This document shows positions 19,432 through 19,999 of a stretch of 46,331 nucleotides of DNA, piece after piece. Numbering within the stretch: position 1 is the first letter of the stretch; each line of letters begins with the position of its first letter. Made by a program: the position numbers and the translations under genes. The notes beneath the pieces are model-generated. The model did not search any database. It was not told the DNA's origin and worked only from the letters and a program-made list of their open reading frames with translations. Origin of the DNA: a virus (Duplodnaviria > Heunggongvirae > Uroviricota > Caudoviricetes); the IMG/VR virus record IMGVR_UViG_2877948078_000002, one strand, 5' to 3'.

Positions 19432-19756
19432 GCACCATAACTGCTAATCATTCAAACTATTTCACCTGTGACAGAGTCAATATCGCATTCTGTCACTGTC
19501 AGGCTAATACAGAGCTGCAATTCAACTACTGCAATGTCCTCGTAATTAGGTGAATTTACAATATCGTCCTGTTCGGATGCCGGCTGCATTGCTGAAGATG
19601 AGGCATTTATGGTTCGCATATTTTCCCCTCATGCTCGTCAGTCCTGTGCGTAGGAAGAAACAGGACACTCACACTAATTTGTGTGGGCATGCTGTGATGT
19701 CCTTCTGAATTATTCCTATGCCATTATGTAAAGCGCTGTATCAGATGCTCGTCACG

Positions 19757-19787
19757 GCTGTCAGGCTGTCAGGCTGTCAGGCTGTTG
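19757..19787. repeat. Tandem 8-bp repeat (GCTGTCAG x 3.8)
   Basis: GCTGTCAGGCTGTCAGGCTGTCAGGCTGTTG read directly; about 30 bp upstream of the cos-like GC-rich element. Confidence 0.7.
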
Positions 19788-19814
19788 GGTCCTCCCGGTG
19801 GGGGCCCCTGCCAC

Positions 19815-19832
19815 GGGGCGGGAGCGTCGCGG
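19815..19832. promoter_or_regulatory. Putative cos site (cosN-like) about 170 bp upstream of the terminase small-subunit gene
   Basis: ACGGGGCGGGAGCGTCGCGG resembles the lambda cohesive end region GGGCGGCGACCTCGCGGG (recalled); spacing to the small terminase start is similar to lambda cos to Nu1. Confidence 0.4.
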
Positions 19833-19999
19833 AAAAAGGCTAGTTTTTGCATTTCCATGGCGGCGGCAGCATGTTTGGTAATTTATTGATAATTAAAAGT
19901 TATTTCTCTTTTCAGCTGTACAATATTTTTTTCTCCCTGTCATTAGACTAGTTTGCAATTAATTGAAATATATAAATAAACCTGATTTTCACCTGCCAG

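Follow-up and report, generated by a model that had tools for sequence, protein, structure and literature searches.

In a 46,331-nt stretch of viral DNA (hereafter the window), tandem octamer repeats lie next to a GC-rich sequence that resembles the lambda cohesive end, a short way upstream of a small terminase gene. The initial annotation read the whole as a putative cos region, the packaging site that defines the ends of the virion genome. Is this locus a cos site, and are the octamers a part of it? The window is a whole, intact-looking E. coli prophage that is permuted relative to phage Tritos: positions 1-19815 correspond to Tritos 24860-46360 and positions 19816 onward to Tritos 1 onward, with roughly 97% identity over about three quarters of the length. 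Tritos, prophage 3 of E. coli LF82, is a plaque-forming phage (PMC9928086). Beyond about 45056 the window no longer resembles Tritos, which suggests that its final 1.3 kb is host flank and that the prophage lies inside a transporter gene. A 427-aa transporter-like ORF (45048-46331), apparently truncated at its N-terminus, reaches the end of the window; we take it to resemble E. coli ydfJ. Chi sites (GCTGGTGG) numbered 7 in the window versus 1.57 expected, on the plus strand at 2220, 11706, 11763, 16330 and 24194 and on the minus strand at 12296 and 12348. Thus 5/7 are on the plus strand, with four of those five in the would-be right arm of the virion DNA, and this fits the Chi-rich Tritos class (PMC12315714).

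The sequence in question lies upstream of an adjacent terS-terL pair that is transcribed away from it (Table 1), and the portal protein encoded downstream belongs to the lambda family by Pfam. The TerL could be aligned with lambda gpA over 627 columns at 24% identity (E = 7e-22). For the TerS, BLAST detected no similarity to Nu1 and a sequence search of the PDB gave no match. Its AlphaFold model (pLDDT 77) showed a beta-alpha-alpha-wing-alpha N-terminus, which in the model is a winged helix-turn-helix (wHTH) topology. The best Foldseek matches of the model were MerR/RacA/BldC/Xis-type domains and a small-terminase DNA-binding domain (7lwr_A), all below significance. A gpA-family TerL and an N-terminal wHTH in TerS are both shared with lambda (PMC9026076, PMC4669245). 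The mechanical terS ORF starts at 20000 (MELLMSNVS...), and cdtI is annotated likewise; the ATG at 20012 is the more likely start because all homologues start with MSN... and a GGAG stands at 20003-06. The distance of about 170 bp to the small terminase gene given in the initial annotation was reproduced: 168 nt separate 19832 from the ORF start, and 180 nt separate it from the likelier start. The predicted nick lies 184 nt before 20000, and terS starts about 185-197 nt from the left end, compared with 191 in lambda. Headful (pac) packaging was considered and rejected, as the TerL has the two gpA-family domains and the locus contains a lambda-type cosQ-cosN.

Table 1. Positions of the octamer array, the cos sub-sites and the terminase genes in the window (slashes mark predicted nicks; bp are counted from the predicted left end).
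Feature	Position	Strand	Sequence or family	Remarks
Octamer VNTR	19756..19786	+	GGCTGTCA x3 + partial GGCTGTT	3.75 copies; non-coding; adjoins cosQ directly
cosQ	19787..19793	+	GGGTCCT	packaging-termination sub-site; 22 nt before top-strand nick; identical in lambda, N15, Gifsy-1 and cdtI at 22-23 nt
cosN, 22 bp	19811..19832	.	CCACG/GGGCGGGAGCGT/CGCGG	partly symmetric; predicted nicks after 19815 (top) and 19827 (bottom)
Predicted 12-nt 5' cohesive end	19816..19827	+	GGGCGGGAGCGT	left virion DNA end; also the start of the cdtI and Tritos records
I2-like segment	19832..19855	+	GAAAAAGGCTAGTTTTTGCATTTC, with A5 and T5 tracts	end of shared cosQ-cosN module; mosaic joint near bp 40
R3-equivalent	19859..19875	+	GGCGGCGGCAGCATGTT	bp 44-60; proposed primary TerS binding site; aligns with sister-clade CATGCTGTCAGCAGCAGGT
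I1-equivalent IHF site	19879..19891	-	TATCAATAAATTA (WATCAANNNNTTR)	bp 64-76; between R3 and R2 as lambda I1
R2-equivalent	19913..19923	-	CAGCTGTACAA (reverse complement TTGTACAGCTG)	aligns with inverted sister-clade R2 GAGGTGACAA (reverse complement TTGTCACCTC); degenerate in window
R1-equivalent	19935..19948	+	CCCTGTCATTAGAC	CTGTCA core kept; homologous to relatives' CTGTCACCTCA / CTGTCATCTGACC at bp 121-122
Distal R-like element	19990..19999	-	CACCTGCCAG	just before terS; aligns with sister-clade CACCTGACAG (reverse complement CTGTCAGGTG) at bp 178
terS, small terminase	20012..20539	+	DUF1441 family, wHTH	Pfam PF07278, E = 1.7e-44
terL, large terminase	20548..22647	+	lambda gpA family (ATPase + endonuclease)	Pfam GpA_ATPase 5e-81, GpA_nuclease 1.8e-86

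The lambda-like sequence was compared with known cos sites by aligning the window, lambda, N15, Gifsy-1 and cdtI with the lambda top-strand nick as the anchor. With the nick shown as a slash, the window reads ..TT GGGTCCT CCCGGTGGGGGCCCCTGCCACG / GGGCGGGAGCGT CGCGGA, lambda ..AC GGGTCCT TTCCGGTGATCCGACAGGTTACG / GGGCGGCGACCT CGCGGG and the Salmonella phage Gifsy-1 ..CA GGGTCCT TTCCGGGAATTCTGCCTGTTACG / GGGCGGCAGCGT CGCAGG. The resemblance to the lambda cohesive end that had first drawn attention to the locus is borne out, with ACGGGGCGGGAGCGTCGCGG at 19813-19832 identical to lambda ACGGGGCGGCGACCTCGCGG at 16/20 positions. Alignment with the cos sites of related phages, which had been suggested as a check, also agreed: GGGTCCT, the 22-nt spacer and CG/GGGCGG....../CG correspond base for base with lambda, N15 and Gifsy-1. 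Bases 1-6 of the predicted cohesive end are GGGCGG, as in lambda, the two nick positions, which lie 12 bp apart, are each flanked by CG, and a partial two-fold symmetry around the 6/7 centre takes in 12/22 positions versus 10 in lambda. The heptamer GGGTCCT, which we take to be lambda cosQ at bp 48473-48479, where Wieczorek and Feiss in 2001 reportedly located its seven bases, stands 22 nt from the predicted nick compared with a spacer of 23 nt in lambda. It begins right after the octamer array and is the true upstream sub-site, one that was missed in the initial annotation.

The conservation of these elements is in line with what is known of cos sites. CosQ is described as a highly conserved 7-bp element, here sought about 23 bp upstream of the top-strand nick, and conserved CG dinucleotides are likewise described beside the two nicks (PMC4669245). 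Exact-pattern scans recovered at least 275 loci sharing the left end predicted here, and GGGTCCT was retained in 270 of 275 related loci while the spacer varied. The pattern GGGTCCT-N18-26-CGGGGCGG occurred once in the window and in 0/100 shuffles. In cosN, variation was limited to bases 7-12 of the cohesive end, as in N15 and Gifsy-1. The four bases at which the window differs from lambda (7, 8, 9 and 11) fall in the half of the lambda-type cohesive end that is naturally variable (PMC4669245), and the Gifsy-1 end GGGCGGCAGCGT is a single base (base 7) away from that of the window, with an identical cosQ.

Does the resemblance extend to the cut itself? We consider it improbable that this is a cos site cut with a geometry unlike that of lambda, giving a shorter or shifted overhang. 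For the distantly related Cr-LKS3, whose TerS belongs to this family (38% identity), cohesive ends with a 9-nt 5' extension are reported (PMC9303873), the identity of TerL to gpA is as low as stated above, and the centre of the site departs from lambda at bases 7-9 and 11. Against these points, conservation extends to the nick-flanking CGs, their 12-bp spacing and end bases 1-6, the symmetry about the 6/7 centre is not less than in lambda, and the nearly identical end of Gifsy-1 is listed among those of 12-nt lambda-like phages (PMC4669245). A lambda-like 12-nt 5' overhang, GGGCGGCGCGCT, was also inferred for mEp213 and LLS, whose TerS are about 41% identical to that of the window (PMC12315714). 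Because the Cr-LKS3 overhang is 9 nt, the length of 12 nt predicted here is not guaranteed and a small doubt is kept.

Several features around cosQ varied among relatives. Instead of GGGTCCT, a set of loci (L140-L159, L206, L132 from Providencia phage PSTCR8lys, and L126 from Gifsy-2) carries AGGTACT (AAAGGTACTCC...) at the cosQ position, 23 nt before the nick. PMC4669245 describes no apparent natural variation in cosQ. An inverted repeat between cosQ and the spacer was considered and dropped, as in some lineages its arms form a direct instead of an inverted repeat. A palindrome, TGATAATCATTATCA, was observed 5-9 nt upstream of cosQ in lambda (48449-48463, L004), in the cdtI class (L002, about 1470-1485) and in several distant genera (L136, L138, L179, L182, L197 and L392). 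Allowing up to 2 mismatches, it had 8 matches in 14.4 kb of cosQ-upstream zone versus 3 in 237 kb elsewhere. It is absent from the window and from all octamer-bearing classes, and where lambda has the palindrome the window has the octamer-bearing sequence. The palindrome resembles the Fur-box consensus at 16/19 positions; our literature search found no paper linking cosQ with a Fur box.

The order of the sub-sites as assigned here is that of lambda, cosQ-cosN-I2-cosB (R3-I1-R2-R1), followed by the terminase genes (Nu1 and A in lambda). A block CGCGG(A/G)AAA(A/C)GGCTnGTTTT with A/T tracts (bp 13-33) is conserved in distant TerS relatives that were found via the protein, and its position is that of lambda I2, which spans bp 18-50 (PMC4856287). 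The R3-equivalent segment stands where R3 is found in lambda (bp 50-65) and N15 (bp 48-59) (PMC9026076, PMC4669245), and it changes with TerS type. The IHF site is the sole perfect match to the consensus WATCAANNNNTTR in the 46-kb window and lies between the R3 and R2 positions as in lambda. Other cosB types and other genera retain its core TAAnnnnTTGAT at this position. The R sequences of the window are unrelated to those of lambda. In the lineage of the window, R3 takes the form G(G/C)(C/T)GGCGGCAGCATG and R1 is CCCTGTCATTAGAC. Both are conserved where TerS is about 83-86% identical, the R1-equivalent being shared with L134 and L389.

The assignment of cosB was aided by more distant prophages in which the R sites are clear. 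TerS relatives about 51-56% identical to that of the window were found via the protein in Morganella, Proteus, Providencia, Xenorhabdus and Rahnella prophages. Their recognition helix reads NRGTVKKRL versus HRDTVKKRL in the window, and their cos layout is the same, with the predicted nick 186-195 nt before the aligned terS start. In these relatives of five genera, YTGTCA cores are fixed at bp 45(+), about 102(-) and 121(+), with two more before terS, matching the orientation of lambda R3-I1-R2-R1 (PMC9026076). In other lineages the cores switch with the helix, DRK(A/T)V going with GGGACACC and DRATVRKRI with TCATCAG. As the cores change together with the recognition helix, this comparison of sequences supports the cores as putative TerS sites. 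The three R-equivalents of the window, in contrast to the clear R sites in the relatives, share little sequence and form no evident repeat family; a de novo search for three R repeats in its cosB returned only A/T-rich pairs. Therefore cosB in the window is assigned by position and homology only.

The same cosQ-cosN module joins at least three cosB/terS types that diverge after about bp 40. At this mosaic joint (window 19816-19860, loci L006-L125), hundreds of E. coli loci have cosQ-cosN-I2 in common to about bp 40, and the cosB/terS types past the joint, GGCGGCGGCAGCA, CGTCATCACCAC and GGCCACCATCATC, all display a 3-nt NNC rhythm. The upstream flank of cosQ-cosN-I2 reassorts independently of cosB/terS type.

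We then turn to the octamers. The sequence at 19750-19840 is cgtcacGGCTGTCAGGCTGTCAGGCTGTCAGGCTGTTGGGTCCTCCCGGTGGGGGCCCCTGCCACGGGGCGGGAGCGTCGCGGaaaaagg, and the near-fourfold repeat of the initial annotation is real: GCTGTCAG occurs in three exact copies (19757-64, 19765-72 and 19773-80) followed by a fourth unit, GCTGTTGG, at 19781-88 that matches at 6/8 positions. Tandem Repeats Finder reported a period of 8, 4.2 copies and 96% matches (score 61) at 19751-19785, and the count of GCTGTCAG in the 46-kb window was 9 versus 1.31 expected, a number that 0/100 shuffles reached. The three exact head-to-tail copies far beyond chance, together with other copy numbers in relatives, identify a real slippage-type array. 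A similar sequence, GTCACTGTCAGGCT, is present at 19490-19506 in a lambda-homologous segment 3' of a ybcW-like ORF. It resembles the start of the array, GTCACGGCTGTCAGGCT (19751-19772), and is possibly the seed from which the array grew.

The part of the initial annotation that did not hold is the inclusion of the octamers in the cos site. The number of exact copies adjoining cosQ in the 275 related loci was 0 in 94, 0.75 in 73, 1.75 in 75, 2.75 in 26 and 3.75 in 3, the window included. Among isolated or inducible phages with the same terminase, cdtI has 0 copies, its cosQ being preceded by a lambda-like flank, HannyBb has 1.75 and Tritos 2.75, compared with 3.75 in the window. Cross-tabulation showed octamer-bearing flanks with all three cosB/terS types, while 10/35 loci of the cosB type of the window were without an octamer. 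The array was equally or more frequent with types T2 and T3, whose TerS N-terminus (HTH region) differs in sequence. Such free reassortment with three cosB/terS types indicates that the array is not a required or specificity-bearing part of cos. A functional tandem-repeat sub-site would be expected to be conserved and to co-vary with terminase specificity; the array does neither, and cdtI with the same TerS is without it. Most likely, the array is a neutral replication-slippage polymorphism beside cos, located just beyond cosQ where the packaged DNA has its outermost right end, and at most a typing marker.

Other roles for the array were also considered. As an RNA it had no Rfam match, it showed no sign of folding (z = -0.31) and contained no terminator, and the number of promoter-like sites in it was that expected by chance. 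The octamer GCTGTCAG is not Chi, the true Chi sites being elsewhere in the window. As an R site it was rejected, with only CTGTCA(G) in common with the R cores of relatives and no link to TerS type. A working part of the packaging signal, for example extra TerS (R-like) sites or a spacer that tunes cosQ-dependent termination at the right end, is a reading to which we give very little weight. It draws on the fact that the sister-clade R3 (TGCTGTCAGCAGCA) has GCTGTCAG as its 8-nt core, as does the pre-terS element (CTGTCAGGTG) on the opposite strand, on the CTGTCA retained in the R1-equivalent of the window, and on the direct contact of the array with cosQ. However, this overlap is just a 6-8-mer (GCTGTCAG / CTGTCAGG against the R cores of relatives), CTGTCA occurs 36 times in the window, and the R3-equivalent of the window itself is unlike the octamer. 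The absence of octamers in cdtI, which has identical TerS and cosB, and in the 10/35 loci, the similar or higher frequency with T2 and T3, and the variation from 0 to 3.75 copies among closely related loci all argue against it too. There is a still slimmer chance that the GGCTGTCA array represents copy-number-variable auxiliary terminase-binding sites on the right-end ("wrong") side of cosN, which by slippage would tune termination efficiency, processivity or right-end protection. If this were true, the array would be a contingency locus inside a packaging signal.

That the repeats are coding can be dismissed almost completely. An ATG ORF of 41 aa (19718-19843) spans the array and cosN, and automatic calls in HannyBb place small CDSs annotated as 'hypothetical protein' in this region. 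The 8-nt steps in copy number, however, shift the frame of any ORF here, which excludes a coding role of the array. In virion DNA the cos nick would moreover sever the 41-aa ORF, for which Pfam gave no match, and in cdtI the upstream flank is swapped for unrelated sequence.

The ends of deposited phage genomes bear on the position of the nick. [quoted passage not shown] Both records have GGGCGGGAGCGT... as their first bases, beginning at window position 19816, and ...CTGCCACG as their last, finishing at window position 19815. Neither record carries a cos annotation in the stretches examined, and the Tritos paper contains no analysis of cos or termini (PMC9928086). Literature searches found no experimental end mapping for the cdtI/Tritos phage group, and a text search found the cohesive-end 12-mer GGGCGGGAGCGT in no relevant paper. 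Analogy with lambda may have guided the choice of the record termini, which are therefore supporting evidence and not proof. By homology, we infer that 19816 is the left and 19815 the right virion end of this prophage. A scan with a pattern starting at the nick found no contig that starts there in IMG/VR or among metagenome contigs. Some contigs (L311, L330, L268, L329, L275 (metagenome) and L054) end 8-56 nt upstream of the predicted nick. As this is where the upstream flank classes diverge, these breaks look like assembly-graph branching at a mosaic joint rather than physical ends.

Considering the evidence as a whole, window 19787 to about 20000 is very probably the cos site of a lambdoid prophage of the cdtI/Tritos/mEp460 type, with lambda-type cleavage and packaging. 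The packaging-site reading of the initial annotation is thus supported in silico by the observed elements, namely cosQ, cosN with its CG flanks, an I2-like segment, an IHF site and a wHTH-TerS/gpA-type TerL pair, in lambda order and spacing, together with their conservation and the protein families to which the terminase belongs. On the model of lambda, dimers of the small terminase would bind cosB on concatemeric DNA via the winged helix-turn-helix, cosB comprising the R3-equivalent, the I1 bent by IHF, and the R2- and R1-equivalents (19859-19948). The TerS bound to cosB would anchor the gpA-type large terminase on cosN, which would nick the top strand after 19815 and the bottom strand after 19827, resulting in 12-nt 5' cohesive ends GGGCGGGAGCGT. 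Packaging would then proceed rightward from 19816 through terS and terL until, at the next cos, cosQ (19787-19793) and cosN would trigger the terminating cut. After excision, the virion chromosome would run from 19816 to the prophage end and from the prophage start to 19815, about 45 kb. In this scheme, binding, exact nick positions and overhang length are predictions. It is unlikely, though less so than the alternatives weighed above, that cos is intact in a defective prophage, so that the site never defines virion ends in this strain. About a quarter of the prophage does differ from Tritos and HannyBb, but terS, terL and portal are full-length and as long as in cdtI, cosQ-cosN-cosB is only a few bases off the functional phages cdtI, Tritos and HannyBb, and about 45 kb is within the lambda packaging range.

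Comparison with other phages places this site among the known systems. Gifsy-1, described with R3-I1-R2-R1 (PMC9026076), has a TerS of the Nu1/phage 21 type and not of DUF1441, which accounts for the difference between its cosB and that of the window; the lambda TerS is likewise of another sequence family. [quoted passage not shown] In Gifsy-2, cosN has also diverged, alongside the AGGTACT noted above. The 'simple' cos of N15 shares the conserved cosQ and cosN and the R3 position at bp 48-59 (PMC4669245); it has one R site, no IHF site and terS at bp 89, in contrast to the long, IHF-containing 'complex' layout of the window.

Two public phage records already begin and end in the identical sequence, so the type of site is known, as in effect is the site itself, and it adds no new biology to a well-studied system. 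The region matched 2,107 of 5,426 complete E. coli genomes, and none of 40 sampled E. coli records had an annotated feature under the match. Locating cos fixes the predicted virion ends (19816 left, 19815 right), the packaging direction and a packaged unit of roughly 45 kb, and it identifies the sequence that satellites or cosmids would need for packaging by this terminase.
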